Assembly (NCBI GenBank): GCA_951813565.1
Contig: OX638351.1
Coordinates: 739,716-803,715 of the forward strand
Direction: 5' to 3'
Length of the DNA stretch: 64,000 nt
Source of the DNA: an uncultured Poribacteria bacterium
GTDB lineage: Bacteria > Poribacteria > WGA-4E > WGA-3G
Below the pieces are notes generated by a model, which was not told the origin of the DNA, did not search any database, and worked only from the letters and a program-made list of their open reading frames with translations. Position 1 is the first letter of the stretch. Each line of letters opens with the position of its first letter. The translations under genes and the position numbers were made by a program. Positions 13,564 through 60,830 of the stretch are shown here, in pieces.

Positions 13564-13827
13564 GTAGGGCGAGGTCTCTGTGCCTCGCCATGTTCAACAT
13601 GTCAAAGCAATGGGTCGGACCAGAGAACACCCATAACTGTCAATTTAGCGGTTCGCCACCTTAGTAGGCGCGTTTTGATGAAGATTAATTTTTTAATTCG
13701 GTATTATTTTCTTAAACTTCATCAAAACGCGCCTATCTTTGGGTAATAAATCGGGCTTAGAAAGCCCTCCCACAAGAAAATCAGGCACTAAATTGATGGC
13801 AATGGGTGGGACCAGAGAACACCCTAT
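13564..13827. mobile_element. REP doublet interrupted by a TGTCAATTTAG cassette (13634-13802) with 23 bp direct repeats and REP cargo
   Basis: Direct repeats 13611-13633 and 13803-13825 (21/23 identical); cargo GTAGGCGCGTTTTGATGAAG..CTTCATCAAAACGCGCCTA. Confidence 0.75.
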
Positions 13828-13872
13828 GATAAAGGTTGACCTATCTGAAAGGAAACTCAGACTCACAAGAGT

Positions 13873-14856
13873 TTAGTCAGGTAAACGAATTCGCTGCCCG
13901 GTATGTGCAGATTCATGCAATGCATCAATGACGCGCATATTTCCGAGCGCGTCTGCAATGGGCAAGCGGAGCGGTGTGCCGTTTTGGACTGCTTCACACA
14001 GATTTAAAATCTCAGCAGCATAAGGATTCACACCGTTAACGCTGAAAGTTTCTCCATTGACGGTAAAGTGTGATTCTCCTTCACCGTTTCCCCAAGCCTT
14101 CTGGACAAAGAGAGTTCCTTTTGTGCCAGCAACTTCATAACATTCACGCCATGTCCAACCAAAACTGCAGTCAAATTGTCCGGTGATACCATCGCCAAAG
14201 TCTAATGTTCCGATGAGGGTTTCCCAGACGTTGTTAATCGGTTCATACTTGCCTGTAGCCCACACAGACTGCGGTTCTTGTCCCATGACATAGCGAATAA
14301 TGTTGATACAGTAGCACCCTAAATCCATCACAGCACCGCCACCGAGGTCACCTCTTAACCGCCAATTTGTTCTATCGGTGAGTCCAGTTGAAAAAGTGGA
14401 GCGTGCATAGCGGACCTCCCCGATTGCGCCCTCCTCAACCTTTTCCTGGACCGCCAACGTTAACGGATGATGCCGATACATAAACGCTTCCATCAAGATG
14501 ATGTTGGCACGTTCTGTAACTTGAATCATCTGCTCAAGTTGCGATGTATTGACAGCAATCGGCTTTTCAACGAGGATTCCCTTGACACCACAGCGTACTG
14601 CTTCCAAGACATTTTTAAGATGGCTTGAAGGCCAAGTGGCAACAACGAGAATATCAGGGTTCTGTTTCTCCAGCATCTGCCGAAGGTCGTTGTAAGTATT
14701 CTCAACGTTATATTCTGTGGCAAAACGCGAGAGCGACTCAAATTTCTCATCGCATGCACCGACAATCTCAATCTCTGACACATTTCGCCAGGCGTTTCCG
14801 TGCGCGTGTGAAATTCCACCGCACCCAACGATTGCCACGCGATATTTTTTCGCCAT
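13873..14856 (-). CDS. Gfo/Idh/MocA oxidoreductase
   Basis: IVGCGGIS, VEKP, GGGAVMDLGCY. Confidence 0.92.
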   Translation of the reverse strand: MAKKYRVAIVGCGGISHAHGNAWRNVSEIEIVGACDEKFESLSRFATEYNVENTYNDLRQMLEKQNPDILVVATWPSSHLKNVLEAVRCGVKGILVEKPIAVNTSQLEQMIQVTERANIILMEAFMYRHHPLTLAVQEKVEEGAIGEVRYARSTFSTGLTDRTNWRLRGDLGGGAVMDLGCYCINIIRYVMGQEPQSVWATGKYEPINNVWETLIGTLDFGDGITGQFDCSFGWTWRECYEVAGTKGTLFVQKAWGNGEGESHFTVNGETFSVNGVNPYAAEILNLCEAVQNGTPLRLPIADALGNMRVIDALHESAHTGQRIRLPD

Positions 14857-14865
14857 TATTTTACC

Positions 14866-15837
14866 CTATAACGAAGAAATCTGGACAAGTCTATTCTCCT
14901 GTGCGGAGATATTTGCTGCGAGTGATATTTCAAGCGTCTTGACTGCATCGGTATAAGGACTCAATATCTGAGATGCATCACCGCTACGGACTGCATTCAC
15001 AAAAACTTCGTCAATGGTGGGACCAGGTTCCGTCTTATCTACCCATTCACCATCTTCTTGCACAGAGACTCTCGCTGGATTCCAATTCAACAATTCACCG
15101 TCATATAGGATATCTAAAACATTGGCATTGTTCCAACCGCCTGCATAAGCCCATGCTGCTGTCATTGAACCTACAACGCCATCAGTAAATTGGAGCGTTA
15201 CACTATTGCTATCGGGACAATCAATCTCTTTCAGGAAGCGATTTGCCTGCATTGCATAGACTGATTCCACCTCACCGATGAGATTACGCATCATGTCAAT
15301 TGTGTGTGTCGCCTGTTCAACTAATTGTCCACCAGATTTGTTCATTTGTCGCAACCAACCTTCAGGATTACCACGTCCGCTGCCGCACCAATACTTGCCG
15401 ACAACCATGTTAATTGTCTTGCCTGCAAGGATTTCCTGCGTTATTCGTGTTGAGCCAAGATAACGGAGTTGATAGCCGACACAGGTTATTAGTCCTGCTT
15501 TGGTTACCGCAGCTTCAACTTCACGCGCGATGTCCATGTTGATCGCTACCGGCTTCTCAACGAAGAATGGTAAGCCCCGTTCAATCACGTCTAATTCAGG
15601 TTGACCGTGTGCAAAAACAGGGAGACTCAGATAGATAGCGTCAAGGTCATCTCGTTCCAACATTACGCGGTGTTCTGTATACGGATCCGCGTTGTGTTTT
15701 TCCGCTGCATTTTGTGCTTTTTGTGGCACAATATCACATATTGCAACGACGTTTGCGCCTTCCATTTCAGATAACCGATTCATGTGACCATTCGCATTGC
15801 CACCCGATCCAATAAACCCAATTTTAATTTCTTTCAT
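14866..15837 (-). CDS. Gfo/Idh/MocA oxidoreductase
   Basis: FIGSGGNA, FVEKP, SGGQLVEQATH. Confidence 0.92.
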   Translation of the reverse strand: MKEIKIGFIGSGGNANGHMNRLSEMEGANVVAICDIVPQKAQNAAEKHNADPYTEHRVMLERDDLDAIYLSLPVFAHGQPELDVIERGLPFFVEKPVAINMDIAREVEAAVTKAGLITCVGYQLRYLGSTRITQEILAGKTINMVVGKYWCGSGRGNPEGWLRQMNKSGGQLVEQATHTIDMMRNLIGEVESVYAMQANRFLKEIDCPDSNSVTLQFTDGVVGSMTAAWAYAGGWNNANVLDILYDGELLNWNPARVSVQEDGEWVDKTEPGPTIDEVFVNAVRSGDASQILSPYTDAVKTLEISLAANISAQENRLVQISSL

Positions 15838-15928
15838 ATTTTACCTTTCTGTTCGCAAATTCAAAGCTGCAGATTTTCTTATGTTTTGGATACTGCAGCT
15901 TGTTGTTATGCGCCGCATCTAACGACGT

Positions 15929-17143
15929 CTAACGCGCTTTAAAATTAACCTGTAATGCTTTTTCTATATCTTCACGGGGATGAACCCCAAATTGTTTTTC
16001 GAAATTCTCATCAAATGCAGCTTCTTCTTCCGGATCAGGTTGAAGGGGTAATTGAATAGGTTGCCGATTTGACTGCACAGAACGACGTGCGGCGATAACC
16101 ATCTCCTGATCAGCTCTACCCATCTCTCCTGTCCAAAGCGGTTGTGTATTATCTCTAACTGCACGTCCGATACCATCAAGCATTGTGGCAAGTGAAATGC
16201 CGCCCTCGGAGATTTGGGTATGCCGATAGGGATTAAGCCATTCAACCGTACCACCAAGAGATTCGGGAAGTTCAACAAAGATACGCTGCAGCACCTTATC
16301 CTCACCGTATTCCCTCTGAAATTCATAAGTTTGTGCTCTTCCTGCATTTTGGCTAATATCTTCATCTGTGCAAACGTTGACAGTTTCACCGCCAGAAGCA
16401 CCTTGGTTGCCGTTTGTGATAATTGTGCCGCGCTCACCACACGTCTCAAAACCGACAAGTTTGTTCCGTCCGAGACATCCATTCTTGTTGCCTACCATTG
16501 CGATGCCGAGTCCACCATTGTCAAAATCAACAGCGTAAAATTCTAAGCCTTCCTGATTGAAATCTCGTTTTGCTCTGTCAACATAAGGCACAACAGGCAT
16601 AGAATGTCCGATGCTACTTACCGTTATTGGTGCAGCGTTCATTCTACACCGTATTGCTGCAAGACCGTGATAACCTGTTGTGGAAAACAACCGATAACAT
16701 TTATGCACCTTGCCAATTACGTCTTCCTGAATAAGTTTGCAGACAAACTGTTCCACAGGAACAAATGGAAAGTTCTCTGATGTTTGGAGTTGGACCCCAT
16801 TTTCAGCAGCATCCGCTATCATCATATCCATCAAACCGAGAGTCGGGGCAAGTGGGGTTTCCACATTCTGTGATATACCGCAACGGGACAGGTAACAGGA
16901 AACGATATGATGTAGCGGTGCAGGCACAACGACATCGCAGACATCGGGCGACATCTCGTCAACAAGTTTTCGGACATCGGTATATGCCTTTACACCGACT
17001 CTTGCTGCGCCCGCCTCCGCTGATTCTTGATGTGCATCGCACACCGCAACGATTTCAAAGGTATCCTTTAGTGCGGCAGCGGTTGACAGATGTGCTGAAC
17101 CGCGCCGTCCATGACCGATTAATGCGTATTTTAAACGTGACAT
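15929..17143 (-). CDS. divergent Gfo/Idh/MocA oxidoreductase
   Basis: LIGHGRRG Rossmann motif; VETP in place of EKP. Confidence 0.8.
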   Translation of the reverse strand: MSRLKYALIGHGRRGSAHLSTAAALKDTFEIVAVCDAHQESAEAGAARVGVKAYTDVRKLVDEMSPDVCDVVVPAPLHHIVSCYLSRCGISQNVETPLAPTLGLMDMMIADAAENGVQLQTSENFPFVPVEQFVCKLIQEDVIGKVHKCYRLFSTTGYHGLAAIRCRMNAAPITVSSIGHSMPVVPYVDRAKRDFNQEGLEFYAVDFDNGGLGIAMVGNKNGCLGRNKLVGFETCGERGTIITNGNQGASGGETVNVCTDEDISQNAGRAQTYEFQREYGEDKVLQRIFVELPESLGGTVEWLNPYRHTQISEGGISLATMLDGIGRAVRDNTQPLWTGEMGRADQEMVIAARRSVQSNRQPIQLPLQPDPEEEAAFDENFEKQFGVHPREDIEKALQVNFKAR

Positions 17144-17180
17144 TTTCTTTCAACTTCCTAAGAATTGGAAATCGCTCCTA

Positions 17181-19658
17181 CTACTTGAGGATTAGCATTT
17201 TGCGCGTGGCAGTAAAGTCACCGGCGGTGAGGGTGTAAAAATACACACCGCTCGCAGCAGGTTCACCGAGTGCGTTTCTGCCATCCCAATGCGCAGCACG
17301 GCTGCGAGTTTGATACAGGCCTGCACGCTGATGTCCTAAATCTAAGGAACGTACAACATGTCCCTTGATGTCGTATATCGTCAGTGTGACATCGGCAGGT
17401 TTGGACAGCTGATACGGAATCCACGTCTCTGGGTTGAACGGGTTCGGGTAGTTCGCAAGCAGTGCGGTTTCTTCTGGTGTGAACAGTGCCAAGAGTCGCT
17501 CTACAACAGCAATACCCCGCTGGTAAGTGCGGGAGGTGTTTCCCGATGCGCGCGCCTCAGTGAGATATCTTTGGAGTTGTGCTTTCGTGAAATGTGATTG
17601 CACCTGCGCGCGGGCAGCGGGTGCAGCTGCCGCACTGTCCACCGCGGCAGCAACCAAGATGAAATCGTCCACGTTGACAATTTCATCTCCGTTGACATCC
17701 GCAGCATTGCTCCCGGTACGTCCATACCGCTGTGCGACTACAATCAGATCATTAACATCCACAATCCCATCACGGTTCACGTCCTCCTTGACGATTGTGG
17801 GATTAACTGGAGAAAAAATGCCGATGGCTATACCTAATGGAATTTCCAATCCTTGTGTGACGAGGTCTTCGACGTTTGAACCATCAAGGTTTGCGCGCTG
17901 GATTTTATCCGTGCCAGTATCTGTCCAATACATCTTGCCACCCGCCACATCTAACGCTATGCCCCTTGGACTGCGTAATCCCTGTGTAACGAGGTCTTGA
18001 ATGTCTGATCCATCCAGGTTTGCCCGTTGGATTTTATCCGTGCCATAGTCTGTCCAATACATCTTGCCACCTTCCACGTTTAACGCTATTCCGCTTGGAA
18101 ACTCTAATCCTTGTGTGACGAGGTCTTGAACGTCTGATCCATCCAGGTTTGCCCGTTGGATTTTATCCGTGTCAGCATCTGTCCAATACATCTTGCCACC
18201 CGCCACATCTAACGCTATTCCGCTTGGACTGCGTAATCCCTGTGTAACGAGGTCTTGAACGTCTGATCCATCCAGGTTTGCCCGTTGGATTTTATCCGTG
18301 TCAGCATCTGTCCAATACATCTTGCCACCCGCTACATCTAACGCTATGCCCCTTGGAAACTCTAATCCTTGTGTGACGAGGTCTTGAACGTCTGATCCAT
18401 CCAGGTTTGCCCGTTGGATTTTATTCGTGTCAGTATCTGTCCAATACATCTTACCATCTTCTACATCTAACGCTATGCCCCTTGGAAACTCTAATCCTTG
18501 TGTGACGAGGTCTTCGATGTTTGAGCCGTCCAAGTTCGCCCGTTGGATTTTATCCGTGCCAGTATCTATCCAGAAAATCGTCAACAGAGCTTCTCCCCTG
18601 TTTGCAGTGACGTGTATTTCTGTAGTTAGCGCGGTGCCTTTATAGTTTGTGATCGCGCCAGATGCCACACTGAAGGTCAATGCACTATCCCTGACAAAGT
18701 CGGTGCCATCAAAATCAAGTTCAACCGTTATTTCAGTATCGCTGAGGCGTTGCACGGAAGCGGTGTCTACTGCTACGCCATTGATACCGGATACCATCAC
18801 GGCATTTCTGATCGTGGAGATGTCCTGCTCAAAAGCTGCACCAGTAAGGACCAGTGAGACAATGCTCTCATCCAGCGTCGCTTCTGTCAAGGGAGAAACC
18901 ACTGAAGCAGAAACAACTTCTTTAATAGCGGTGACAGTTATTTCTGCAATGAGTTCTTCTCCTATGTAGTTTGCTATTGCCTCTGCTGCCACGTTGAAAC
19001 TGAGTGCAGTATCAGTGTCAAAGTCGGTCCTATCAAAATCAAGATCAATTGTTATTTCAGTATCGCTGAGGCGTTGCACTTTTGCGGTGTCTATCGTTAC
19101 ACCATTGATACCGGAGACCATCACAGCATCTCTAATCGTGGCAACGTCCGCCTCGTAAGTATCATAACTGAGTGTCAATGTGACCACACCTTCATCCAAA
19201 GTCGCCTCTGTTAATGGAGACACAGCTGAGGCTGAAAGCCTTGTGTAACTTGTCGTTCCTTCGTGAATAGCGCCTGAATCTATGCGCACCTCGTACGTAG
19301 TCCCGGGAACAAGACTTTCAATTGTATAACTTCTTGTAGCAGTCTCAACTTCGTTGGGTATCCGATAAAATCTCCAAATCACTGTATAACTCTTATTGGC
19401 TGATTTCCACTCCCCTGGGGATGTTTTTTGCCTCCATTCAAAGAGAAATGTTTTAGTCTCAATACCCGAATGATTCTCCAAATAACTGAAATTAAATGTT
19501 ACTTTTAGCGAAGTGTCGTTATCACCAGGCTCAACTGAGACGATATCAGCGTAACTTGCAGTTTGTGCATTACATATCAATACTATCACCATGAGAACTA
19601 ACAAAGTAATTTTTCGATTCATAACTAACATTTTCATCATAAACTCCTTTGTAAACAT
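17181..19658 (-). CDS. secreted protein: FN3-like, two Ig-like repeats, six YWTD (LDL-receptor class B) repeats, dockerin-like domain, FlgD-Ig/T9SS-type C-terminal domain
   Basis: GKMYWTD repeats; EDVNRDGIVDVNDL and DVNGDEIVNVDDF; LANYPNPFNPETW..SGVYFYTL..TRKMLILK. Confidence 0.9.
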   Translation of the reverse strand: MFTKEFMMKMLVMNRKITLLVLMVIVLICNAQTASYADIVSVEPGDNDTSLKVTFNFSYLENHSGIETKTFLFEWRQKTSPGEWKSANKSYTVIWRFYRIPNEVETATRSYTIESLVPGTTYEVRIDSGAIHEGTTSYTRLSASAVSPLTEATLDEGVVTLTLSYDTYEADVATIRDAVMVSGINGVTIDTAKVQRLSDTEITIDLDFDRTDFDTDTALSFNVAAEAIANYIGEELIAEITVTAIKEVVSASVVSPLTEATLDESIVSLVLTGAAFEQDISTIRNAVMVSGINGVAVDTASVQRLSDTEITVELDFDGTDFVRDSALTFSVASGAITNYKGTALTTEIHVTANRGEALLTIFWIDTGTDKIQRANLDGSNIEDLVTQGLEFPRGIALDVEDGKMYWTDTDTNKIQRANLDGSDVQDLVTQGLEFPRGIALDVAGGKMYWTDADTDKIQRANLDGSDVQDLVTQGLRSPSGIALDVAGGKMYWTDADTDKIQRANLDGSDVQDLVTQGLEFPSGIALNVEGGKMYWTDYGTDKIQRANLDGSDIQDLVTQGLRSPRGIALDVAGGKMYWTDTGTDKIQRANLDGSNVEDLVTQGLEIPLGIAIGIFSPVNPTIVKEDVNRDGIVDVNDLIVVAQRYGRTGSNAADVNGDEIVNVDDFILVAAAVDSAAAAPAARAQVQSHFTKAQLQRYLTEARASGNTSRTYQRGIAVVERLLALFTPEETALLANYPNPFNPETWIPYQLSKPADVTLTIYDIKGHVVRSLDLGHQRAGLYQTRSRAAHWDGRNALGEPAASGVYFYTLTAGDFTATRKMLILK
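17820..18580 (-). repeat. six ~129 bp coding tandem repeats (43 aa YWTD units)
   Basis: TGTCCAATACATCTT recurs every 129 bp; the units are nearly identical. Confidence 0.92.
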
Positions 19659-19715
19659 TCTTTGAAGATCAGGCGCACAAAGTCATCTCCATTTATGAAA
19701 TAGATTGTAGTTGAA

Positions 19716-20663
19716 TTAGTTAACACATTGATACCCAACTGCCTCAAGTTCACTCCGAATTTTGTCTATTTCAGCAGTAGACAACTGACGCAGTGGTCTG
19801 CGCATCGTCATGGATGGAAATCTACCCATCAACCATCTGGCACACTTCATGCGTTGGTGTGCATCACTACTCGGTTCACCGAAGTTGTAAACAATCCGAG
19901 CTAAGGTATCTACCTGATTACGTGCTTTGCGTGCGCCTATCAAATCATTATTGAGCGCGGCGTGTACGACAGCGACCATCAATTCGGGAACAAATCCAGC
20001 AAATCCAATGAGTGCGCCATCGCTACCTTCCAAGAGGGAGGCAAGTAAATATTCATCATGGCATGTTAAAATAGGGACATGTGGCGCTGCTTCTCTCAAT
20101 TGTTCGTAATCCCACCGCCAACGCGCCATGTCGCGGGTGCCCATTTTAATACAAACAACTTGTGGGATTTTCACCATCTCCAACATCTCTTCAAGGCTAT
20201 ATCCTGCCTTTGTCCACGCGGGGTACTGATGCACAATAATAGGTATGTCCGCACCTTCAGCGACATCTTGGAAATAGCCGACTGCGGTTTCAGGTGTTCT
20301 GCCGAAACGCAACCAGTGATGTGCAGGCATCAACAGAATCGCGTCAGCCCCTGCTTCCTTCGCTGCGAGCGCATCGTCAATTGCGGGCAAACTTCCTTCA
20401 GCACTAACGCCTGAAACGACTTTAACCTTGTCGCCAACGGCATCTGCAGTGATTTGGGTTACGCGCTGCCGTTCATGTAAACGGAGCGACATGATTTCAC
20501 CGGTGTGCCCATTACAGACGACACCTTTTATACCTTCTACGTTGGCGAGTCCCTGCATATATTGACGTAAACCGTCTTCATCAATTGATTCATCTGAATG
20601 GAAAGGACAGAGCGTTGCCGGAAATACGCCCGCCCACGGATGCTGCTGCCAATTAAGATTCAT
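19716..20663 (-). CDS. dihydrodipicolinate synthase (DapA) family aldolase/dehydratase
   Basis: CNGHTGE and a Schiff-base Lys in CIKMG. ATG 20663 with SD; the longer ORF starts inside a REP remnant. Confidence 0.88.
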   Translation of the reverse strand: MNLNWQQHPWAGVFPATLCPFHSDESIDEDGLRQYMQGLANVEGIKGVVCNGHTGEIMSLRLHERQRVTQITADAVGDKVKVVSGVSAEGSLPAIDDALAAKEAGADAILLMPAHHWLRFGRTPETAVGYFQDVAEGADIPIIVHQYPAWTKAGYSLEEMLEMVKIPQVVCIKMGTRDMARWRWDYEQLREAAPHVPILTCHDEYLLASLLEGSDGALIGFAGFVPELMVAVVHAALNNDLIGARKARNQVDTLARIVYNFGEPSSDAHQRMKCARWLMGRFPSMTMRRPLRQLSTAEIDKIRSELEAVGYQCVN

Positions 20664-20985
20664 TATGTTATCAATACCTCTCTTTATCACAGATGAGGAA
20701 AATATAAGAGGCGCAATAAATTGCGCGACTACAAACACTTTTTTGTTAATGAAAAGCGATCATTCAGAAATGGTATTATATAAGGATAAGCACGGAATTC
20801 CGTAATAGTTTTCAATTTGACACTATTTTAACTTGATTTTAAATCCAAAGTCAAGTATTATTTTTATAATGGAAAAGGATTTATTATATCTATTTTAGGG
20901 TAATTCAATAACATCGTTGACGGACGATTATGTTTTTCATTGGTGTGTTTTAGGGAGATTTCGTATTGTTACGGAGGATTTTCAC

Positions 20986-24177: not shown

Positions 24178-24186
24178 GGCGTTGTT

Positions 24187-27157: not shown

Positions 27158-27479
27158 GTAACGTGAATTTGATAAATCCCGTAGGGAATCAACACCGAAT
27201 GCGCCTATGGCATTCGGTGGGGTAGAACGAAAATGGGCAATAAAAAACAGCCTCTAAAAAGAGGTTGTTGACCCATTTGAGGTCTACATTTCTGAAAAAA
27301 TAAGTGAAACCCAACTCTTTAGGACTGTCAAGATGGTTGAATTGTTGGGTTTCGCTTCGCTCTACCCATAGGCGTCAATTTAAGGTATATCCAGCATTTT
27401 TTCTTAAGTTGACAGTTATGGGTTTCGCTTCGCTCTACCCAACCTATTATATTCAATTTAATTATCAAACTCACGTTAC
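27158..27479. mobile_element. MITE-like element with GTAACGTGAGTTTGATAA ends; nested micro-element and cassette with 23 bp duplication
   Basis: Inverted homolog of 44397-44841. Micro-element 27186-27219; perfect direct repeats 27346-27368 and 27419-27441. Confidence 0.85.
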
Positions 27480-27661
27480 CTGTAGTAAATCAAGCCTCAT
27501 GTACTTATAGTTTTCGTCATATTAACGCCTTGTGCGTGGCACGCTGCAGGACACAGAGAACACTGCCCTACCATAGAAGTAAATAATCGGGCTTGCAAAG
27601 CCCTCCTACAAGATATGGTGTGGTTAATGTCAAAAACTTTACATGTAGATTAAAATAAAAC

Positions 27662-44261: not shown

Positions 44262-44396
44262 ATAACCAGGACCTACGCACAAGCGGTAGGCGCTGAATCG
44301 TGGCAAGTCATTGGACTTGCCACGATTCAGCGTGTTCAGTTGAATTTAGGTAATGAACAAACTACTTAATGAACAAACTACTTATAGAGAACTTAC

Positions 44397-44841
44397 GTAA
44401 CGTGAGTTTGATAATTAGATTGAATATAGATGTAGGTTGGGTAGAGCGAAGCGAAACCCAAATCAACGGTATGAATGCCTGTTGGCATTCCCCGGGTGTC
44501 AATTTAAGAACAAATGGTTGAATTATCTCTTGTGGGAGGGGTTTGTAACCCCGATTTTTAAGATTCAAGCAGTTAAATCCAAATCAACGCCAAATGCGCG
44601 TATGGCATTTGGCGGGGTTGAAAACCCCTCCCACAAGAAGATGAATCCTTAAGTTTACACCTATGGGTAGAGCGAAGCGAAACCTAACAATTCAACCGTC
44701 TTGAGAGTAATAAAGAGTTAGGTTTCACTTATTTTTTCGGAAATATCGACCCCAAATAGGTCAACAACCTCTCTTTAGGGTCTGTTTCTATTGTAGATTT
44801 CCGTTCTACCCAACCTACGGGATTTATCAAACTCACGTTAC
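44397..44841. mobile_element. MITE-like element (inverted copy of 27158-27479) with a cargo-bearing cassette and two micro-elements
   Basis: Perfect ends GTAACGTGAGTTTGATAA / TTATCAAACTCACGTTAC; direct repeats 44438-44460 and 44664-44686; micro-elements 44459-44494 and 44580-44614. Confidence 0.85.
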
Positions 44842-49771: not shown

Positions 49772-49797
49772 ACAGATGTGGTAGAAGAAAATGATTG

Positions 49798-50001
49798 CAT
49801 AGGTGTCAATTTAGTCCCACATTGTAGGACGGGGTCTCTGTGCCCCGCCATCACATAGGACATGCCAGGCAACGGGCGGGCACCAAATCAACGGTATGAA
49901 TGCCTTTTGGCATTCCCCGGAGACCCGCCCCTACAATAGGGTAGGGTTTAGTTAAGCAATCACGTAAAAATTTGAAATAAATTCTTAAGTTGACAGTTAT
50001 G
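49798..50001. mobile_element. CATAGGTGTCAATTTAG..CTTAAGTTGACAGTTATG cassette with REP doublet and micro-element cargo
   Basis: Same ends as the 13.6, 27.4, 44.5 and 60.6 kb copies; micro-element 49884-49919; both flanks contain AAATGATTGCA. Confidence 0.8.
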
Positions 50002-50013
50002 GATAAAACATAA

Positions 50014-50625
50014 ATGATTGCAATTATAGACTACAAAGCTGGAAACCTTACAAGCGTTGCGCGTGCTTTGGACCACCTCGGCTATGAAAACCAGATCACG
50101 GATGATGCGGAAACCATTCTTGATGTAGAACGCGTTATCTTTCCCGGAGTCGGTGCTGCAAAAGCGACTATGGGAAACTTGCAGGATCGTTCTCTTGACG
50201 ATGTGCTTCTCAAGTTCTACGAATCTGGCAAACCGATGTTAGGCATCTGTATCGGCATCCAAATCCTTTTTGAACACAGTGAAGAAGAAGATACTGAGTG
50301 CCTTGGACTGCTATCGGGTCACGTGAAAAAATACCCTGTACATAAGCGACTCAAGGTGCCACAAATCGGATGGAATGAAGTCCAGCAGGTTCGTCCGCAT
50401 CAAATCTTTGAAGGCGTGCCGAATCCTGCTCATTTTTACTTTGTTAATGCCTATTATCCTGTTCCAGAGGTGGAAGAAACCATCATTGGGAAGACAACTT
50501 ACGGTCTTGAATTCTGTAGTGTCATTGCCCATAACAATCTGGTCGCAACACAATTTCATTTGGAGAAAAGCGGTAGCGTCGGTTTAAAAATGTTGGCAAA
50601 TTTTTTGAAATGGCAAGCGGGTTAA
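50014..50625 (+). CDS. hisH: imidazole glycerol phosphate synthase subunit HisH
   Basis: IIDYKAGNLTSV, FPGVG, LGICIG.Q, TQFHLEKS. Confidence 0.95.
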   Translation: MIAIIDYKAGNLTSVARALDHLGYENQITDDAETILDVERVIFPGVGAAKATMGNLQDRSLDDVLLKFYESGKPMLGICIGIQILFEHSEEEDTECLGLLSGHVKKYPVHKRLKVPQIGWNEVQQVRPHQIFEGVPNPAHFYFVNAYYPVPEVEETIIGKTTYGLEFCSVIAHNNLVATQFHLEKSGSVGLKMLANFLKWQAG

Positions 50626-53684: not shown

Positions 53685-53735
53685 CAGTTTTGAATTCTAA
53701 AATAAAATGAATAAAATCAAATTGAGATCATACTA

Positions 53736-54029
53736 ATGGACATAGGAAAAGTTATTGGAACAGTTGTCGCAACGCGAAAAGACCCGAGTTTAGAAGGCAC
53801 ACGCCTTCTCGTCGTGCAACCTTTGGATGAAAAACATAATCCTATTTCCGAACCTCTTGTCGCAGTAGATACACTACAAGATGCGGGGGTAGGAGAAATA
53901 GTCTACATAGTTACCGGAGGCGATGCGGTAGGTGTTATACCCGGAAAGCGGATGCCGGTAGATGTGGCAATTGTCGGTATTGTTGATTCTCTCTCGCTGC
54001 TTGAAGAACCGGGCAAAACGTTACCGTAA
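53736..54029 (+). CDS. EutN/CcmL family microcompartment vertex protein
   Basis: GKVIGTVVATRK...L.G..LL.VQP, VAVD..AGVGE, VDVAIVGIVD. Confidence 0.93.
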   Translation: MDIGKVIGTVVATRKDPSLEGTRLLVVQPLDEKHNPISEPLVAVDTLQDAGVGEIVYIVTGGDAVGVIPGKRMPVDVAIVGIVDSLSLLEEPGKTLP

Positions 54030-54086
54030 CATCGTGAAGTTTTAGTCTCGCGTTACGCGATATTATGCAAAATCTTGTTGGTTTTT

Positions 54087-54383
54087 ATGTACCTTGCAAA
54101 AGTAATTGGTAAAGCCGTATCTGTGCTTAAGCATCCTGCATATAAAAATCGGACGCTGCTGCTTGTCCAACCTTTGAGTCTGAAATCCGAACTTGTCCGC
54201 ACACCAACAATTGCTGTGGATTATGTGGGGGCAGGTGAAGGCGACACGGTAATTGTCGGTGCCGGTCCCGGTGTTGCACAGGAGGTTTTTGGTATAGAAA
54301 ATGCCCCAATCCGAGAACTCGTAATGGGTATTGTAGACCATTTTGATGTGGAATTTCTGGAGGAAACAAAATGGCACGAGTAA
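54087..54383 (+). CDS. EutN/CcmL family microcompartment vertex protein (second, divergent)
   Basis: MYLAKVIG..VS..KH, IAVDYVGAGEGD.V, MGIVD. Confidence 0.9.
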   Translation: MYLAKVIGKAVSVLKHPAYKNRTLLLVQPLSLKSELVRTPTIAVDYVGAGEGDTVIVGAGPGVAQEVFGIENAPIRELVMGIVDHFDVEFLEETKWHE

Positions 54384-55039
54384 GCAAAGAAAATCCTTTT
54401 AACCTCAGTCTTTTGTCACAGAGTTTTACTGTTATAGGTCCTACACTCCGAAAAGACCTATTTTGCGTTTTCTGCTTACTATTTATCTGTTTAACCCTAA
54501 ATGCTTGTAACCTTGCTACGATATTATCAACGCAGTATAGTGAAAATATAGCACAAGCCAATTATGGGACCGAAGCAAACCATCCCGGTCTGAATGATGG
54601 AAACCTCGAAACTGTAGCAACTATTCCGGCAAGGAATGATCGCAACTTTGTCATCCGATTTGCTGAAGTAAACCCGGTCCGCAAAATTGTCATTCACAAC
54701 GAAAACTTGTTCCGATTTGAGATGGACTACCTGAACCATGAAACCGGTAAATGGGAAACCTTCCATTCTGTCATTCAGCGGCGTAACCTTAAAGGCAAGC
54801 GTGCCCAATCCGAGTTTGTCTTTGACAGATTGAACTTTCGCACACAGATGATACGGATTACCGTAACTCGGACTGTAGATGACATCGTTGTGAACAAATT
54901 TGTCACCGATCCTGGAGACAAAGTGGTGAACCAGCGTAAAACGATGGCTGGCCAATACTTACCTCACTACCGAGTGGTCCGACCTTCCATTGCTCAAATC
55001 CGAGAAATTGAGGTCTATCACCTCGCCCAAAATAAGTGA
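54371..55039 (+). CDS. hypothetical lipoprotein, discoidin/galactose-binding-like
   Basis: LNAC lipobox, ENIA..LNDGN, terminal IREIEVY. Confidence 0.65.
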   Translation: MARVSKENPFNLSLLSQSFTVIGPTLRKDLFCVFCLLFICLTLNACNLATILSTQYSENIAQANYGTEANHPGLNDGNLETVATIPARNDRNFVIRFAEVNPVRKIVIHNENLFRFEMDYLNHETGKWETFHSVIQRRNLKGKRAQSEFVFDRLNFRTQMIRITVTRTVDDIVVNKFVTDPGDKVVNQRKTMAGQYLPHYRVVRPSIAQIREIEVYHLAQNK

Positions 55040-55104
55040 TCTATAGTAAATTTTACAAGTAACGATAAACTTTGATCGACGCGCTTACATAGCGCGTTTA
55101 CCAG

Positions 55105-58100
55105 TTGATGTTTAATATTATGATTTCAATGATGAAACACATTACATTATTAACAGTCATTTTACTCCTTATAAATATAGTGTCTTTTTTTGCTGTTATC
55201 TCTGTGGAAGCTTCCCCAGTTACCCCTAATAACCGATCACATATTAGGGGAATATCACACAGTAGCGGAAAGATTGAATTGGTAAGTGCTACATCCCAAG
55301 GGGTAACGATTCAACTTGCTATCGCTGAATCAGATTTCGAAATAGAAACACAGGAACGTAGTGGCAAACATTTTCAGACGCTCTCATTCCCAGAATGCCG
55401 TTTCACAACAGAACATGGAACCCACCGTCTACCTATGCAGACTGCCCTGATTGGGGTTCCAGCAGATGCAAGTTTTACGTTACGTGTTGTTGAAAGTAGT
55501 GACTTTAGCATATATAAACTTCAACACACGCTCGCGGATCGTAGTGTTTATTTCGGGCAACACAATTTTAATGCAGCGGCGCCAACATCAGAGAAGGTTT
55601 ATACAACCGATCGTTTTTTTCCACACAACCTTGCTGAAATTAGAACGGCAGGATGGATTCGGGAAAACCGCGTTCTTCCTATCCAACTAAATCCGGTTCA
55701 ATATAACCCTGTCAGTGGCGAGGTTCGGCTTTACCACCGCCTTGTAGTCGAGGTGCAATTCAACGGGTTAGGTAAAGCACCGTCAGCGTTTCAAGGATTC
55801 CCTCGTCCAGAATCTTCTATTTATGAGGAAATGTTCGGGAATCTACTGATTAATCCACAAACTGCTAAGCAGTGGCGTTCTCCAGTTATGGGTGAAATTC
55901 AAGGGAACAATGTTTCCACAGTTGGGACACTTACTGAGCGCAGTCCTGCCTTTTCTCTACCCAGTGCCCCCCCAATTACCTCGCCTCGCTATAAGATCAC
56001 TATTACTGAGTCAGGCATGTACCGCATTGCGGCAAGCGACTTAGCAGCAGCTGGAGTTGATATAACTACTATCAGACCTTCCTCATTGACAATGTCAAAC
56101 AAAGGAAAACAAATCCCGCTTCTTGTGCGGAGAACAAGCAGTGGACAATCAGCAACAGAGGATGGGATTAATTCCACTGGGTTTGATAGCAACAGTGAAA
56201 TCATTTTTTTCGGTCAACGCCACGGTGGTGAAAAAACTTATATTGATCCATATTCAGATGAGAATGTCTATTGGCTTTCGTGGAATTCAGGACCGGGACT
56301 GCGGATGGAAACAAAAGTGGTTTCAACAGATACATTCGGAAGATATGAACCTAAGAACTTCCTCACACGTGTCCATTTTGAAAAAGATAATCAGTTTAGA
56401 CGTTTTAAAAATTTTGGTCTTGCAGCAGGAAGTGAATATCAACAAATTAGTGACGGTCTCCAAGAACGGCGATTCACACTAACAGCCTTACCTGAGTTGC
56501 CAGACGATAGTTGGTTTTGGGCACAACTCAGTGCACCACAAGTAAGAGGCTTTCCTTTTACGATAACCGGTGTTGCGGGAACAGCTGAAAAAGCTACCGT
56601 ACGGATTGCGCTCCACGGCAGATCAGAAGATGTGCACTTTACTGAACTGTGGCTGAATGAGGATATTGTCCTTGGAGGACCGCGATGGGAAGGAGAAACA
56701 GAATTCCAATTTGAGAATCAACAGATTTCCCAATCCGTTCTCAAAGATGGTAGAAATACAATTAGCGCGGTTAATCCTGGGGGGAGTGGTCTGGATCTCA
56801 TCATGCTGAACTGGTTTGAAATTGACTATTGGCGAACTTTTGAAGCAAATGCGGATGTTCTGCCTTTTTCAATTACATTACTCCCAGACGATGAAACCGG
56901 CAACGTTAATCCTAATTTTAAAGTTGAGTTAAAGAACTTTTCCAATCCTAACATTGAGATTTATGGTATTGATGGCACGCGGTATGTTGGTTTATCACCG
57001 ATAGAAGATGAAGATCGTCCAGGCATCTACAATGTCGTTTTTCAATCTTCACGGATAGGCGGCGTGTCGCAAAACCGATCTGCTGTACCACTTGATACAG
57101 ATATCCAATATATCGCGCTAACAAGCGACAAATACCTAAAACCTAACAAAATCATCAAGGACACATCATCGGATTTAAGCGGTCTACACAACGGTGCAGA
57201 TTACATTATCATTACGGATACAGAATTTATGCGAGATGTGCAACCGCTTGTCGACTTTCGAATCCAGCAAGGAATGCGGGCTAAAGTGGTGGATGTCCAA
57301 AATATCTATGATGAGTTTAATCATGGAATTTCCAATCCTTATGCGCTCCGCGATTTCCTTAAGTATGCTTATGAAAACTGGCAACCGCCAGCACCAACCT
57401 ATGTTTTGTTAGTTGGGGACACAAGCCCAAAAGACAAGGTAAGTTTTGTTCCTACAATTCAGGTGCAAATCCCGGGTTACGGTTCATCTGCGAGCGATCA
57501 CCAATTCGTCACATTTCGCGGCGATGACAGTTTCCCGGATATGCTTATCGGAAGAGTGCCAGCAGCAAATAGTGTAGATGCGCGGATATTCGTTGAACGT
57601 ACCATCAACTATGAAAATACTGCCGAAGTAGGTCCTTGGCACAAACGTATACTTATGCTCGCGGGCTCAGATAAAAGATTTCACGCCCAAACCGATGAAC
57701 TGATTGAAGTGAGAAGGCTCCCTGAAAAATATGAAACTAAACTAATCTATGCGCCTCCTACTGCAGAAGATGAACTGACCTTAGGTGAAGGCAGCACTCC
57801 TGTTGGACGACAGGTTATTGATGGTTTCAACGATGGAGCGACTCTTGTTAATTATATCGGTCACGGTGGTGGAGGCGTTTGGTCATCCAGTCGTATGATG
57901 GATTTAGAGGATCCAGAAAAAAACCTAACAAATATATCGCGGCTTCCCTTTGTTATCAGTATGACGTGTTTCACGGGTGAATTCGACAGTCCATCAGGCT
58001 GTCTCGCGGAAGCGTTGCTTCGTTCGGAAAGTGGTGGTGCCATCGCGGTCATCGGCGGAACGAGCATCGGACTATTAGATGGGGACCATCTTCTCAATAA

Positions 58101-60357
58101 AGAGATTTTTGAGGTTATTTTTAATGACAACACACAACATATCGGTGGCATTCTCGCCGAAGCGAAGACACAATTTCTGATTAACTTCCCGGGATTCCTT
58201 GATCTTACGGAAGTTTTTACCCTTTTCGGTGATCCAGCGACTCGGTTGAGATTGCCGCACACGCAGATGCAAGTCACAGTTGATTTAGATGAGACATCTG
58301 ATCCGGAAAATTTCAAAACAGAAACATTACTATCTATTTCTGGAACGCTACCTAACCCCGATTTTAGTGGAGATGCCGAGATTACTGTGCTTCCGAATCC
58401 GCCAGACAGAAGCATAAAAAAGAAACGTTCAAGTCGTAATCCTCCGGATATGGTTGTTCGTCGTTCTATAGACGACGAACCTCGTATGGAAACTGTGTCG
58501 GTGATTGATGGAAAGTTCGAAACACAAATACGGATTCCTTACAATAGCGCATTTGATGCGCTGAAGTTGAGAGTTTACGCGTGGAATGCTGAAGAAGACG
58601 CAATTGGATATATGGATTATACCCCTCTTGATCGATACATCAAAAACGTCCGTCTTGAACCTTATCCTGTTGCCCCCGCCCAACCTGTCCATATTTATGC
58701 TGAGGCAGTTAATCCAAGTGTAATTGACGAAATAACCCTCTATTGGAGTTTTTTTGTCATAGAAGATCGTCGTACAGAGGCAGATGCAATCCCGATGGTT
58801 TTACACGAAGGAAGTACCTACAGAACTGAACAACCTATCCCCGCGCATCTATCAGGTGACCTAATTGATTACTATCTACTTGTCAAACCGAAGGATGGGC
58901 GTATTCTTCACACAAAGGTTGTTACCTATGAAGTTGGTGAAGCGGATCTCACCGTTTTAGAACATACTATCAACTGGAATTCCGCTGCACCTTTCTTGCT
59001 TTCCGCGCAAATTAGAAACCGCGGTTCTCTTCATGCCAAAAACGTGCCTGTCCGCTTTTTTCAGATGCGCGTGACTGATGGTTCAGAAACGCAAGAAGTA
59101 ACACTTGAGGCACTCCAGAACGCGACACCTATTGGAGAGGAACAGATTATCTCTGAAGTTCCTCCCGACGGTTCTGTTGTAGCGAGTGTCCCTTGGCAAC
59201 CTGCCCTGGGTACATACCTTGTAACAGTATTTGTAGACATGCCGTCGGAAGAACAACCGAATGGTATTCTTGCTGAATTTAGGGAACACAATAACAGCGC
59301 ATCACGGCAATTTATTAATAACCAACTCTTCCTTACTCCCGATAGTCTTAATACGCCGATTCAGAGCGCAGATGGCGTTTTTCGTATAACTCTACCGCCA
59401 GAGAGCCTGCAAACACATCCAATGATGACGTTTGAAACGGAAGAATTGACTATTACGAACCAACCAGATATAACACCTATTCCCACAACAATTGAACAAG
59501 CTGTGCCTCTTGCCTATCGCCTTAACTTCAGTCAACAAACTGAATTGACAGGGACAGCAACGTTCATGAACACAACGGGTGCGGACTCGCATATCTATAT
59601 GCGTGACGATGAAACAGGGAATTGGATTCGGGTTGGAAAGCAGAAAGATAACGGTGAAATAATTTCCGCGGAAGTTAAACTACCGGGGACGTTCGCACTG
59701 CTCTCCTACACAGATTCTCACCCACCAACATTGGAATTAACCGTTGAAAATCAGGGATTCATTGATGGTGATTACATCTCCGATATGCCCACTATTTCTG
59801 CGAGAATAGAAGACGCAAATGGTATTGATCCTCGGCCCGAGAATATCATTCTCACCAAAAATGGTAACCGCGTCCCACAAGACGAGTACATAGTATCCGC
59901 TTCTCCTACAAGTAGCAACGTCCTCCTGATAACCTATTCCCCGGTTGATACGCTGCAAGCAGGTGAGTACCGAATTCGGTTACAGGCTCAGGATGCAAAT
60001 GGTAATGTCGCAGACACCGATCGGACAGCAAGGGTCGCAGGTGGATTTGAAATAAAAAACATCGCTAATTTTCCAAACCCGTTCCGTTCTGGACAAGGCA
60101 CTGGAAAAGGGACAGACTTCGCCTATTATCTAACAGAAAGTGCGGATAAAGTTACCCTCAAGATTTACACACTTACCGGCAAACTTATCACTACTATTGA
60201 TACACTTGACGCGTCTACTTCTTACAACGAATACCATTTCAATGGCTTGGATGCCGATGGTGAACCGCTTGCGAACGGCGTCTATATTTACAAATTTACC
60301 GCTACCAAAGGTGATGATCGCGCTCAAAAGGTTGGTAAGATAGTGGTTCTCAAGTAG
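55105..60357 (+). CDS. C25 (gingipain/PorU-like) cysteine peptidase with propeptide, CARDB-like and C-terminal FlgD-Ig domain
   Basis: YKITITESGMYRI, ADYIII, IYDEF, YVLLVGD, catalytic NYIGHG and SMTC, LFGDPA, NFPNPF..LANGVYIYK. Confidence 0.9.
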   Translation: MMFNIMISMMKHITLLTVILLLINIVSFFAVISVEASPVTPNNRSHIRGISHSSGKIELVSATSQGVTIQLAIAESDFEIETQERSGKHFQTLSFPECRFTTEHGTHRLPMQTALIGVPADASFTLRVVESSDFSIYKLQHTLADRSVYFGQHNFNAAAPTSEKVYTTDRFFPHNLAEIRTAGWIRENRVLPIQLNPVQYNPVSGEVRLYHRLVVEVQFNGLGKAPSAFQGFPRPESSIYEEMFGNLLINPQTAKQWRSPVMGEIQGNNVSTVGTLTERSPAFSLPSAPPITSPRYKITITESGMYRIAASDLAAAGVDITTIRPSSLTMSNKGKQIPLLVRRTSSGQSATEDGINSTGFDSNSEIIFFGQRHGGEKTYIDPYSDENVYWLSWNSGPGLRMETKVVSTDTFGRYEPKNFLTRVHFEKDNQFRRFKNFGLAAGSEYQQISDGLQERRFTLTALPELPDDSWFWAQLSAPQVRGFPFTITGVAGTAEKATVRIALHGRSEDVHFTELWLNEDIVLGGPRWEGETEFQFENQQISQSVLKDGRNTISAVNPGGSGLDLIMLNWFEIDYWRTFEANADVLPFSITLLPDDETGNVNPNFKVELKNFSNPNIEIYGIDGTRYVGLSPIEDEDRPGIYNVVFQSSRIGGVSQNRSAVPLDTDIQYIALTSDKYLKPNKIIKDTSSDLSGLHNGADYIIITDTEFMRDVQPLVDFRIQQGMRAKVVDVQNIYDEFNHGISNPYALRDFLKYAYENWQPPAPTYVLLVGDTSPKDKVSFVPTIQVQIPGYGSSASDHQFVTFRGDDSFPDMLIGRVPAANSVDARIFVERTINYENTAEVGPWHKRILMLAGSDKRFHAQTDELIEVRRLPEKYETKLIYAPPTAEDELTLGEGSTPVGRQVIDGFNDGATLVNYIGHGGGGVWSSSRMMDLEDPEKNLTNISRLPFVISMTCFTGEFDSPSGCLAEALLRSESGGAIAVIGGTSIGLLDGDHLLNKEIFEVIFNDNTQHIGGILAEAKTQFLINFPGFLDLTEVFTLFGDPATRLRLPHTQMQVTVDLDETSDPENFKTETLLSISGTLPNPDFSGDAEITVLPNPPDRSIKKKRSSRNPPDMVVRRSIDDEPRMETVSVIDGKFETQIRIPYNSAFDALKLRVYAWNAEEDAIGYMDYTPLDRYIKNVRLEPYPVAPAQPVHIYAEAVNPSVIDEITLYWSFFVIEDRRTEADAIPMVLHEGSTYRTEQPIPAHLSGDLIDYYLLVKPKDGRILHTKVVTYEVGEADLTVLEHTINWNSAAPFLLSAQIRNRGSLHAKNVPVRFFQMRVTDGSETQEVTLEALQNATPIGEEQIISEVPPDGSVVASVPWQPALGTYLVTVFVDMPSEEQPNGILAEFREHNNSASRQFINNQLFLTPDSLNTPIQSADGVFRITLPPESLQTHPMMTFETEELTITNQPDITPIPTTIEQAVPLAYRLNFSQQTELTGTATFMNTTGADSHIYMRDDETGNWIRVGKQKDNGEIISAEVKLPGTFALLSYTDSHPPTLELTVENQGFIDGDYISDMPTISARIEDANGIDPRPENIILTKNGNRVPQDEYIVSASPTSSNVLLITYSPVDTLQAGEYRIRLQAQDANGNVADTDRTARVAGGFEIKNIANFPNPFRSGQGTGKGTDFAYYLTESADKVTLKIYTLTGKLITTIDTLDASTSYNEYHFNGLDADGEPLANGVYIYKFTATKGDDRAQKVGKIVVLK

Positions 60358-60360
60358 AAG

Positions 60361-60830
60361 GCAATTTAGTGGTAGAGATTCTTGTGGGAGGCGTTTTCAA
60401 CGCCGATTTTCTTATGTAGCGTAAACTTTCAGTTTGCGCACACAATTCGGGCATAAACTAAAAGTTCGTGCTACAGCAGAAGACTTGCTGCAACTCAGAT
60501 AACACACAAGCAAATCTTTCTAAAATACAGATGTACTATCTTAAATTGACGCCCTACGGTGCGATTGGAAACCGCAACCATAACTGTCAATTTAAAAAAA
60601 TCTGGATTATCTCTTCTTGTAGGAGCGAGCTCCGGCTCGCGACATCGGACGAAGGGTCGCGAGCTGGAGCTCGCTCCTACAGAATGTCCGAAGTGCCAAA
60701 TTCCAAACGCGCATTTGACGTTAATTTGACAATGAATTGCGCGACTACAAACGGCATTTCTATAAATCAAGCGGCACCTGGCGTCTGTCCTTGTCTGTGT
60801 TGATGCGGCAAATATTTATGCACACCCCTC
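60361..60830. mobile_element. cluster of REP doublets inside two abutting TGTCAATTTAA-type cassettes
   Basis: CTTAAATTGACGCCCTA, a ~24 bp hairpin, then TAACTGTCAATTTAA at ~60540-60595; GTAGCGTAAACT..GTGCTAC; GTAGGAGCGAGCTCC..GGAGCTCGCTCCTAC. Confidence 0.7.

Follow-up and report, generated by a model that had tools for sequence, protein, structure and literature searches.

Target duplications of about one helical turn (7–13 bp) are a hallmark of the IS4 family of insertion sequences (ISs), according to a 2008 review (PMC2266710). Within this family, Table 1 of the review gives the IS231 subgroup the end signature CAT-------AA--TAA and duplications of 10–12 bp. IS231A is tabulated with an 11-bp duplication at GGGNNNNNCCC and Tn5 with duplications of 9 bp (PMC2577343, Table 1), and the duplications of IS1634/IS1549 are described as highly variable, 8–514 bp (PMC2266710). 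MIC231 cassettes and IS231-derived MITEs are also known (Chen et al. 1999; De Palmenaer et al. 2004, both as cited in PMC6199540), and for MIC231, mobilization in trans by the transposase of the parent element has been demonstrated (PMC6199540). IS110/IS1111-type ISs, e.g., ISPpu9, favour REP palindromes as landing sites (PMC12288879).

Here, we analyzed short cassettes in a 64-kb window (the whole stretch of 64,000 nucleotides under study) from the genome of an uncultured Poribacteria bacterium, referred to as G000. We are highly confident that these cassettes are MITEs, i.e., transposase-less elements that retain ~18–40 bp from either end of a 1.44–1.47-kb IS, whose DDE transposase is of the Tn5/IS4 kind and closest to the IS231 subgroup. 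Their ~19-base target duplication is twice the length recorded for IS4-family elements.

Short cassettes in the window and across the genome

All of the ends, flanking repeats, and the hairpin sandwich described in an earlier sequence-only reading were found at the positions it gave. The 23-bp flanking repeats match at 23/23 positions at 27346–27368/27419–27441, 22/23 at 44438–44460/44664–44686, and 21/23 at 13611–13633/13803–13825, with a degenerate pair at 49777–49799/50000–50022. At 60529–60600, a single 20-bp hairpin stands between a right end and a left end. Once the CAT...ATG termini are assigned to the element, as that reading had considered, the duplication is 19 bp long (Table 1). The five motif matches to these ends in the window compare with 0.13 expected by chance, and none of 100 shuffles reached five.

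Table 1. Cassette copies A to F and their target duplications, in window coordinates
Feature	Position	Strand	Details
Copy A, left target duplication	13613..13631		GGTCGGACCAGAGAACACC; 18/19 identical to 13805–13823
Copy A, MITE	13632..13804		173 bp; left end CATAACTGTCAATTTAG; right end degenerate (...CTAAATTGATGGCAATG); interior of REP-type palindromes
Copy A, right target duplication	13805..13823		
Copy B, left target duplication	27348..27366		GGTTTCGCTTCGCTCTACC, REP hairpin; 19/19
Copy B, minimal MITE	27367..27420		54 bp; two 18-bp ends plus 18-bp interior
Copy B, right target duplication	27421..27439		
Copy C, left target duplication	44440..44458		GGTAGAGCGAAGCGAAACC; REP family of copy B, inverted; 19/19
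Copy C, MITE	44459..44665		207 bp; interior of REP modules
Nested hairpin micro-element in copy C	44460..44495	+	36 nt; AAATCAAC leader plus hairpin; replaces bases ATAG of the copy C left end
Copy C, right target duplication	44666..44684		
Copy D, left target duplication	49779..49797		non-REP target, directly upstream of hisH
Copy D, MITE	49798..50001		204 bp
Copy D, right target duplication	50002..50020		diverged (11/19 ungapped); includes ATG of hisH (gene 50014–50625)
Copy E, right end alone	60529..60558	-	CTTAAATTGACGCCCTACG
Hairpin target common to copies E and F	60559..60578		20 bp, single copy; GTGCGATTGGAAACCGCAAC
Copy F, left end	60579..60596	+	CATAACTGTCAATTTAAA

The partner ends of copies E (left) and F (right) gave no confident match; candidate far ends picked by eye lie at ~60353–60369 (12/17) and ~60720–60737 (11/18), the latter overlapping a different repeat family. 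Sandwiches of this kind (right end, hairpin, left end) occur 13 more times genome-wide, with CCTAT and ATAGG separated by 20–25 bp. Copy D lies across the hisH start and has left a duplicate of this start region.

Genome-wide, we counted 368 ends with at most one mismatch to a degenerate 16-mer, versus 12 in a reversed-genome control; the two-mismatch class was left out as noise (237 observed versus 257 in the reversed control). Taking convergent neighbours less than 3 kb apart as pairs gave 109 elements of 52–656 bp. By blastn, 71 of these match the full-length element of the related genome G002, solely at their ends (17–44 bp). The elements thus have the features of MITEs: they are small, lack a transposase, share their ends with an autonomous element, and have a target duplication as long as that of the parent.

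The MITE interiors, which are unrelated to the parent IS, are pieced together from REP modules and tiny hairpin elements and contain no passenger genes. What the sequence-only reading had called variable cargo consists of nested REP modules rather than genes. Single-linkage clustering merged the interiors of 81/108 elements and produced no clean subfamilies, because REP modules are common to them. MIC231 cassettes likewise have two IS-type ends, no transposase, and variable interiors; however, as described in PMC6199540, they carry coding passenger genes and measure 0.7–3 kb, whereas the elements here are shorter, non-coding, and filled with REPs.

Flanking repeats and empty sites

A clear flanking direct repeat was found in 58/109 MITE pairs (17 bp in 2, 18 bp in 12, 19 bp in 35, and 20 bp in 9), and 26 of these repeats are perfect. 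When flanks were re-paired at random (200 shuffles), the mean was 4.8 and the maximum 10, versus 54 observed by the same score. The modal length is 19 bp, and the claim of a non-coding family with long, nearly fixed duplications holds. Most duplicated words (49/58) are present at least six times in the genome, in line with the earlier description of the targets as mostly REP hairpins, and seven are found nowhere beyond the duplication itself.

At four empty sites, of which two are orthologous and two paralogous, the target is present just once. The G002 sites orthologous to copy D and to the MITE at G000:4923980 are both empty with a single target; these are the single-copy targets in related genomes for which the sequence-only reading had called. 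At the copy D site, genome G017 has an element with a different interior. The MITE at G000:2004157 interrupts an ISKra4-family transposase gene with many uninterrupted paralogues. Two of these paralogues were examined across the site; they show a duplication of exactly 19 bp and place the terminal C and G within the MITE. For copy B, an empty paralogue at genome position 726824 holds the target word once. Since each of the four sites has a single target, the flanking repeats are true target duplications. For copy A, no empty site was found, as its intergenic region was not alignable in relatives.

Contrary to the earlier suggestion that the 27-kb and 44-kb copies might derive from one ancestral event, they are independent insertions: the paralogue most similar to the 27-kb site (flanks 162/167 and 57/58 identical) is empty, and the flanks of the 27-kb and 44-kb copies are less alike (130/151 and 80/101 identical).

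No clear duplication flanks 51/109 MITE pairs and 15/48 full-length copies, and some of these have inverted flanks, e.g., the decayed full-length copy of this genome. We read the cases without a clear duplication as probable products of later recombination between copies or of decay. Separately, a triple tandem array at 4532454–4533172 was considered as three insertions and rejected; its units 2 and 3 are identical, which is better explained by unequal recombination.

The full-length element and competing explanations

The mobilizing enzyme is absent from the window, as the sequence-only reading had noted. Intact 1.44–1.47-kb elements with MITE-type ends are present in genomes of the same genus, each with one transposase gene. 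There, as in a decayed copy in G000, the gene is bounded by the ends CATAGGTGTCAA(C/T)TTAAG. The full-length element has a match in 12/18 same-genus genomes, versus 0/12 genomes that represent other genera within the order. Across 52 full-length loci, both ends were found in 48 and clear duplications in 33 (18 bp in 5, 19 bp in 23, and 20 bp in 5). The decayed copy (267599–269140, 1542 bp) is the sole full-length copy in G000 and has its reading frame in four pieces; it shares 86% identity over 1408 bp with the G002 element and matches Pfam DDE_Tnp_1 (1e-9) and NCBIfam transpos_IS4_1 (8e-28). As G000 has no intact transposase, mobilization in trans in this genome would lie in the past.

The transposase is an IS4-family DDE enzyme by its profile matches, with a predicted Tn5 fold. 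It scores 211.5 bits against NCBIfam transpos_IS4_1 (cut-off 115), and its reading frame in relatives is a single ORF without frameshift (429–538 aa, mostly 438–444 aa), as expected for the IS4 family; the copy here is broken. The AlphaFold2 model (pLDDT 88.8) has Tn5 transposase chains as its top PDB matches (4dm0_A, E 7.6e-9), although the TM-score is only ~0.47; the predicted fold thus comes closest to Tn5/IS50 transposase (PDB 1MUH, 4DM0), while a sequence search of PDB chains with the transposase gave no match. The catalytic D, D, and E of the G002 transposase are residues 119, 191, and 324, followed by R-E-K. In six aligned poribacterial transposases, the R, E, and K of the Y-R-E-K signature are conserved, but only two have Y; the remaining four, among them the ~40-copy G001 element, have A, V, T, or I at this position. 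The Y(2)R(3)E(6)K motif, a hallmark of the IS4 family, is thus mostly lacking its tyrosine here, unlike in IS231.

The CAT...ATG ends had led the earlier reading to the IS231 and ISH8 subgroups of IS4, and indeed CATAGGTGTCAACTTAAG fits the IS231 signature at every fixed position. Like the IS231 subgroup (IS231A and relatives, IS1151; Bacillus cereus group and clostridia), the elements have one transposase ORF of ~440–480 aa, and IS231 copies likewise form right end–target–left end sandwiches. IS231Y- and IS1151-type elements are the nearest named relatives in a plasmid collection; however, transposase identity is only 24–26%, versus more than 50% for many pairs within the subgroup. Hosts also differ (Poribacteria, Chloroflexota, and others versus Bacillota), as do duplications (18–21 bp versus 10–12 bp at GGG(N)5CCC). 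As a control, 11-bp duplications of the GGG-N5-CC type were read by eye in 3/6 IS231Y-type copies of a Bacillus cereus plasmid; an automatic search for ends and duplications around single copies of the IS231 and IS1151 types found no duplications. Compared with the helical-turn hallmark of the IS4 family, duplications here are longer in MITEs (17–20 bp), full-length copies (18–20 bp), and across phyla (18–21 bp). The duplications of IS1634/IS1549, relatives of IS4 known for long ones, also exceed one helical turn, but the length here is fixed within ~1 bp rather than variable, and the transposase scores only 46.2 bits against NCBIfam transpos_IS1634 (cut-off 100).

Another, unseen enzyme might move the MITEs, with the IS4-type element merely having similar ends. 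The sole full-length copy in this genome is dead and MITE interiors are unrelated to the IS, as such an enzyme would allow; yet MITEs and full-length elements have the same 18-bp ends, duplication length, and target motif, and ends, duplication length, and transposase travel together across phyla, so we consider this highly unlikely. We give even less credence to the idea that the flanks are not target duplications, with the element lying between pre-existing REPs (BIME-like) or being placed by a site-specific recombinase with a hairpin core. The single word at the four empty sites and the seven duplicated words found nowhere else in the genome argue against both versions, and the widely differing target sequences are incompatible with a core-dependent recombinase, even though REP words are abundant, random flank pairs match in ~5/109 cases, and the flanks of some pairs are inverted instead of direct.

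The sequence-only reading had favoured a structure-targeted integrase with products reminiscent of Cas1 integration, and it proposed looking for long copies that enclose an ORF. Such copies exist, and they enclose an ordinary IS4-family DDE transposase, not Cas1. It is therefore extremely improbable that the cassette is inserted at hairpins, always with the same long stagger, by a Cas1/casposase-type or other structure-specific integrase. The repeat-insert-repeat product does resemble that of Cas1 integration, 49/58 targets are REP-type words, and the genome encodes two Cas1 proteins; however, the two cas1 loci contain none of these ends, the nearest of which is 23 kb away from one gene and 59 kb from the other. 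The one cas1 locus checked adjoins a CRISPR-like repeat array. A casposon or Cas1-solo element would have a Cas1-family integrase inside its inverted repeats, which is not the case here. Moreover, non-palindromic unique targets yield the same duplication length. Altogether, this leaves MITEs of an IS4-type element as our preferred explanation.

Target choice, proposed mechanism, and distribution

The duplicated targets are G-rich at one end and C-rich at the other (T-Y-G|GG ... CC|C-R-A). In 20 sites of full-length G001 copies, G occurs at -1, +1, and +2 in 14, 17, and 17 sites; at the mirrored positions, 15, 14, and 15 sites have C. The target resembles the GGG...CCC target of IS231A, but half-sites are ~19 bp apart here versus 11 in IS231A. 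A hairpin need not be present at the target: 14/20 targets of these young copies are non-palindromic, and their duplications are still 18–20 bp, so the hairpin dependence proposed earlier is not supported. A preference for REP palindromes is shared with the REP-targeting IS110/IS1111-type ISs. Those ISs use different enzymes and are not known to make long duplications.

We infer the cut-and-paste chemistry and dimer geometry from relatives (Tn5, IS10, and IS231A). A transposase dimer would bind both ends and excise the element; its two 3'-OH ends would then be joined to target phosphates 19–20 bp apart on opposite strands, and gap repair would duplicate the stretch between them. The ~13–15 bp between GGG and CCC is one helical turn more than the 5 bp of IS231A, so the active sites are probably on the same helix face two turns apart, unless the target DNA undergoes strong deformation. 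Suitable target sites are supplied by REP hairpins with the pattern GGGT...ACCC. As each insertion copies a ~19-base target, a whole small hairpin repeat is often duplicated; this re-creates two targets and accounts for the right end–hairpin–left end sandwiches and arrays.

Duplications of 18–21 bp were found in 41/55 loci examined, of which 23 are outside Poribacteria; relatives with such duplications come from Chloroflexota, Methylobacter luteus, and a Clostridia MAG. The trait thus belongs to a clade spanning several phyla. A literature search covering IS4 elements with 19–20 bp or long duplications, Poribacteria IS4 elements or MITEs, and Herpetosiphon IS4 elements returned nothing relevant, and the text supplements of PMC2266710 make no mention of Herpetosiphon or Chloroflexi. 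We lean toward the view that these elements form a phylum-spanning subgroup of Tn5/IS4-type transposons undescribed in the literature, with IS231-type ends and GGG/CCC half-sites, that attacks its target two turns apart rather than one. Its members would include elements from Poribacteria, several Chloroflexota classes (including cultured Herpetosiphon), Methylobacter luteus, and a Clostridia MAG. With the same leaning, since whole REP hairpins are duplicated, we see it also as a REP-multiplying engine that re-creates its own landing sites.

A coherent clade with 18–21 bp duplications breaks the rule of about one helical turn for the IS4 family, as put in the 2008 review (PMC2266710), and offers a natural experiment on how Tn5-like transpososomes set the distance between their two strand-transfer sites. 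Annotation tools built for duplications of at most 15 bp will misplace the boundaries of these elements, and a Tn5-like enzyme with a 19–20 bp stagger could interest technology. In the window itself, the cassettes represent ordinary genome ecology: they are old MITEs and, as this genome has no working transposase, stranded unless an enzyme enters from outside. More broadly, REPs have a simple route to multiply and cluster when a duplication is long enough to take in the entire hairpin.

Ends, parent element and transposase

The five places named by an earlier sequence-only reading carry the sequence it gave for them, and the end motif CATA(A/G)(C/G)(T/C)GT(C/A)AA(T/C)TTA(A/G) has five matches in the window (≤3 mismatches) versus 0.13 expected, a count reached in none of 100 shuffled windows. 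The genome is a single contig of 5.43 Mb (43% G+C). A degenerate 16-mer representing the end matches it 368 times at zero or one mismatch, versus 12 in the reversed genome; the two-mismatch class was left out as noise (237 observed versus 257 in the reversed-genome control). Pairing neighboring convergent ends <3 kb apart yielded 109 candidate elements of 52–1542 bp.

The search for long copies around an ORF, proposed in the sequence-only reading, recovered an IS4-type DDE transposase gene within the same ends. The longest pair (genome 267599–269140, 1542 bp) surrounds a broken gene identified as Pfam DDE_Tnp_1 (1e-9) and NCBIfam transpos_IS4_1 (8e-28). This is the sole copy in the genome, its reading frame is broken into four pieces, and it shares 86% identity over 1408 bp with an intact element in the same-genus genome G002. 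Intact relatives occur in 12 of the 18 same-genus genomes searched, including ~40 near-identical copies in G001, while the same query (E ≤1e-20) found none in 12 genomes of other genera of the order. The intact elements, 1444–1470 bp long with one ORF of 438–444 aa, share their ends with the MITEs; both ends were present in 48 of 52 fetched full-length loci. Similarity between the MITEs and the parent is confined to the ends (17–44 bp; 71 of the 109 give any blastn match).

The G002 transposase scores 211.5 bits against the NCBIfam IS4 model (cut-off 115) and had no match in a PDB sequence search. Its AlphaFold2 model, built from a 30-sequence alignment (mean pLDDT 88.8, pTM 0.87), shows a predicted Tn5-like fold: the best solved-structure matches are Tn5 transposase chains (4dm0_A, E 7.6e-9, then 1muh_A; TM ~0.47). 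All three catalytic residues (D119, D191, and E324) are conserved, and within the YREK signature R320 and K331 are conserved too; only two of six poribacterial proteins have its Y.

Target duplications and empty sites

Collecting end pairs genome-wide, a check suggested with the original reading, gave clear flanking direct repeats in 58 of the 109 pairs. Counting CAT...ATG as element, these are 17 bp (2), 18 bp (12), 19 bp (35), and 20 bp (9) long, and 26 are perfect. Because many flanks belong to REPs, random left/right re-pairing was used as a control; across 200 trials it produced 4.8 "good" pairs on average and never more than 10, versus 54 observed with the same score. Among the 51 pairs without a clear repeat, some have inverted flanks and others abut nested hairpin elements; these pairs are probably decayed or recombined copies. 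Full-length copies with both ends have clear duplications in 33 of 48 cases (18 bp, 5; 19 bp, 23; 20 bp, 5) and none in 15. The MITEs and full-length elements have ends, duplication length, and target motif in common.

Four empty sites, two orthologous in G002 and two paralogous, settle that the flanks are duplicated targets of ~19 bp: each holds the target once, the single-copy state for which the sequence-only reading had advised looking. Both copy D and a MITE at genome 4923980 (20-bp duplication) have empty orthologues in G002. The MITE at genome 2004157 interrupts an ISKra4-family transposase gene (NCBIfam, 226 bits, cut-off 205), many paralogues of which stand uninterrupted elsewhere in this genome. 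Two of them read across the site as ...GATA-GGTTCTGT(CC or CG)TTTTTACCC-AGTC..., with a single occurrence; the filled site has GGTTCTGTAGTTTTTACCC on either side, and the C and G come from the element. This comparison makes the duplication exactly 19 bp and the element CAT...ATG. The ISKra4-family insertion sequence itself (432-aa transposase) is found at G000:C1:1358506-1359262, with many paralogues at 93–99% identity.

The fourth empty site concerns copy B, whose closest paralogue (genome 726824) has flanks identical at 162/167 and 57/58 positions and one copy of the REP word. A shared ancestral event had been considered for the 27- and 44-kb copies; with this paralogue empty, copies B and C arose independently, despite sitting in a larger repeat that is present in inverted orientation at the two sites. 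These inverted repeats bound a 17-kb segment and could be an inversion substrate; the third copy of the repeat, at 726824, is without a MITE.

Coordinates of MITE copies and associated features in the window
Feature	Position	Description
Copy A	13632-13804	
Copy B	27367-27420	54 bp, barely more than two ends
Copy C	44459-44665	
Copy D	49798-50001	
Micro-element in copy C	44460-44495	36 nt, AAATCAAC-hairpin, replaces ATAG of left end
Other hairpin elements with AAATCAAC leader	~44581-44617, ~49881-49920	34–36 nt
Copy D with duplication	49779-50020	covers start codon of hisH (50014-50625; TIGR01855, 208.8 bits)
Larger repeat, two inverted copies	~27200-27520, 44320-44840	~80–86% identical, at least ~250 bp, REP word inside

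The ribosome-binding and start region of hisH was the target of copy D and is now present twice; the gene starts in the right, diverged duplication copy, with its former upstream DNA 204 bp more distant. At this site, genome G017 carries an element whose interior differs. The hairpin elements with the AAATCAAC leader nest within MITE ends, MITE interiors, and REPs.

Target choice, mechanism and sandwiches

The sequence-only reading proposed a structure-targeted integrase that duplicates hairpins and leaves products reminiscent of Cas1 integration. Its observation that targets are mostly REPs holds: REP-type words make up 49 of the 58 duplicated ones. Among 20 sites of the young G001 population, the target is T-Y-G|GG...CC|C-R-A, with G at -1, +1, and +2 in 14, 17, and 17 sites and C at the mirror positions (15, 14, and 15 sites). 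Palindromic pairs number ≤5/10 in 14 of these 20 targets, which, together with the G/C half-sites, argues that what the element recognizes is end sequence and spacing rather than a hairpin. The predominance of REPs probably reflects in part that REPs offer GGGT...ACCC sites and in part the survival of harmless insertions. Movement by a Cas1-like integrase is contradicted as well: no such end lies near either of the two cas1 genes, of which the one examined adjoins a CRISPR-like array (repeat GTTTCTATTCCACATTGGTGCGATTAAAAG, positions 134-494 of locus G000:C1:1200817-1204662). The same locus contains a perfect 69-bp tandem repeat with a REP module inside (1154-1321). The flanking repeats might instead be pre-existing REP pairs between which the elements lie, or the work of a core-dependent recombinase, but empty sites hold the target once and unique targets exist, which contradicts both.

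We infer that a dimer of the transposase carries out cut-and-paste, with strand transfer at phosphates 19–20 bp apart. As this is the 9–11 bp of Tn5/IS231 plus one helical turn, attack would come from the same helix face, through either wider active-site spacing or a deformed target. Insertion into a REP would duplicate it and leave two intact targets, which would explain the ~60.5-kb sandwich and the 13 others in the genome (CCTAT-to-ATAGG gaps of 20–25 bp). At G000:C1:4532454-4533195, three head-to-tail MITEs have the same 22-bp hairpin word between them (four occurrences in all); the identity of units 2 and 3 points to amplification by unequal recombination between the duplicated targets, so that for at least one array recombination is the better explanation.

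IS231 comparison and spread of the long duplication

According to the 2008 review of the IS4 family (PMC2266710), members of the IS231 subgroup end in CAT-------AA--TAA and make 10–12-bp direct repeats, and across all IS4 subgroups the repeats are 7–13 bp, "approximately one DNA helix turn"; Table 1 of PMC2577343 lists an 11-bp duplication for IS231A (target GGGNNNNNCCC). The ends here match the IS231 signature at all fixed positions. Among transposases in the plasmid collection, those of IS231Y and IS1151 type are the closest named relatives (24–26% identity). As a control, six copies of IS231Y type from a single Bacillus cereus plasmid were scored by eye: three have 11-bp duplications (GGGTACAGCCA, TGGGTTTACCC, and GGGTAGCACCA) and three have none. 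Automatic detection on single copies gave no duplications. IS231-type elements also stand back to back in a B. cereus plasmid record (W01) with one 11-bp target copy in common, the sandwich architecture of the window on a shorter scale.

Next to IS231-like ends, two plasmid-borne relatives (34–36% identity) have perfect repeats: 20 bp for the copy in Candidatus Chlorohelix allophototropha (20 bp with the boundaries of other loci) and 21 bp for that on Herpetosiphon aurantiacus pHAU01 (19 bp with those boundaries). A one-genome-per-species scan gave 78 loci, of which 53 were examined; with the two plasmid loci, this makes 55 of 80, after exclusion of truncated contigs and of near-duplicates within a single record. 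Clear duplications were found at 41 of the 55 (18 bp, 2; 19 bp, 17; 20 bp, 19; 21 bp, 3), 12 were unclear and 2 had no recognizable end pair. The literature searched yielded no account of IS4-family elements that duplicate targets of this length, and earlier ISfinder curation is possible. The 41 include 23 clear cases outside Poribacteria, in Chloroflexota (Dehalococcoidia, Ardenticatenaceae, Aggregatilineales, H. aurantiacus, H. giganteus, and others), Methylobacter luteus, and a Clostridia MAG. The long duplication is a trait of the clade.
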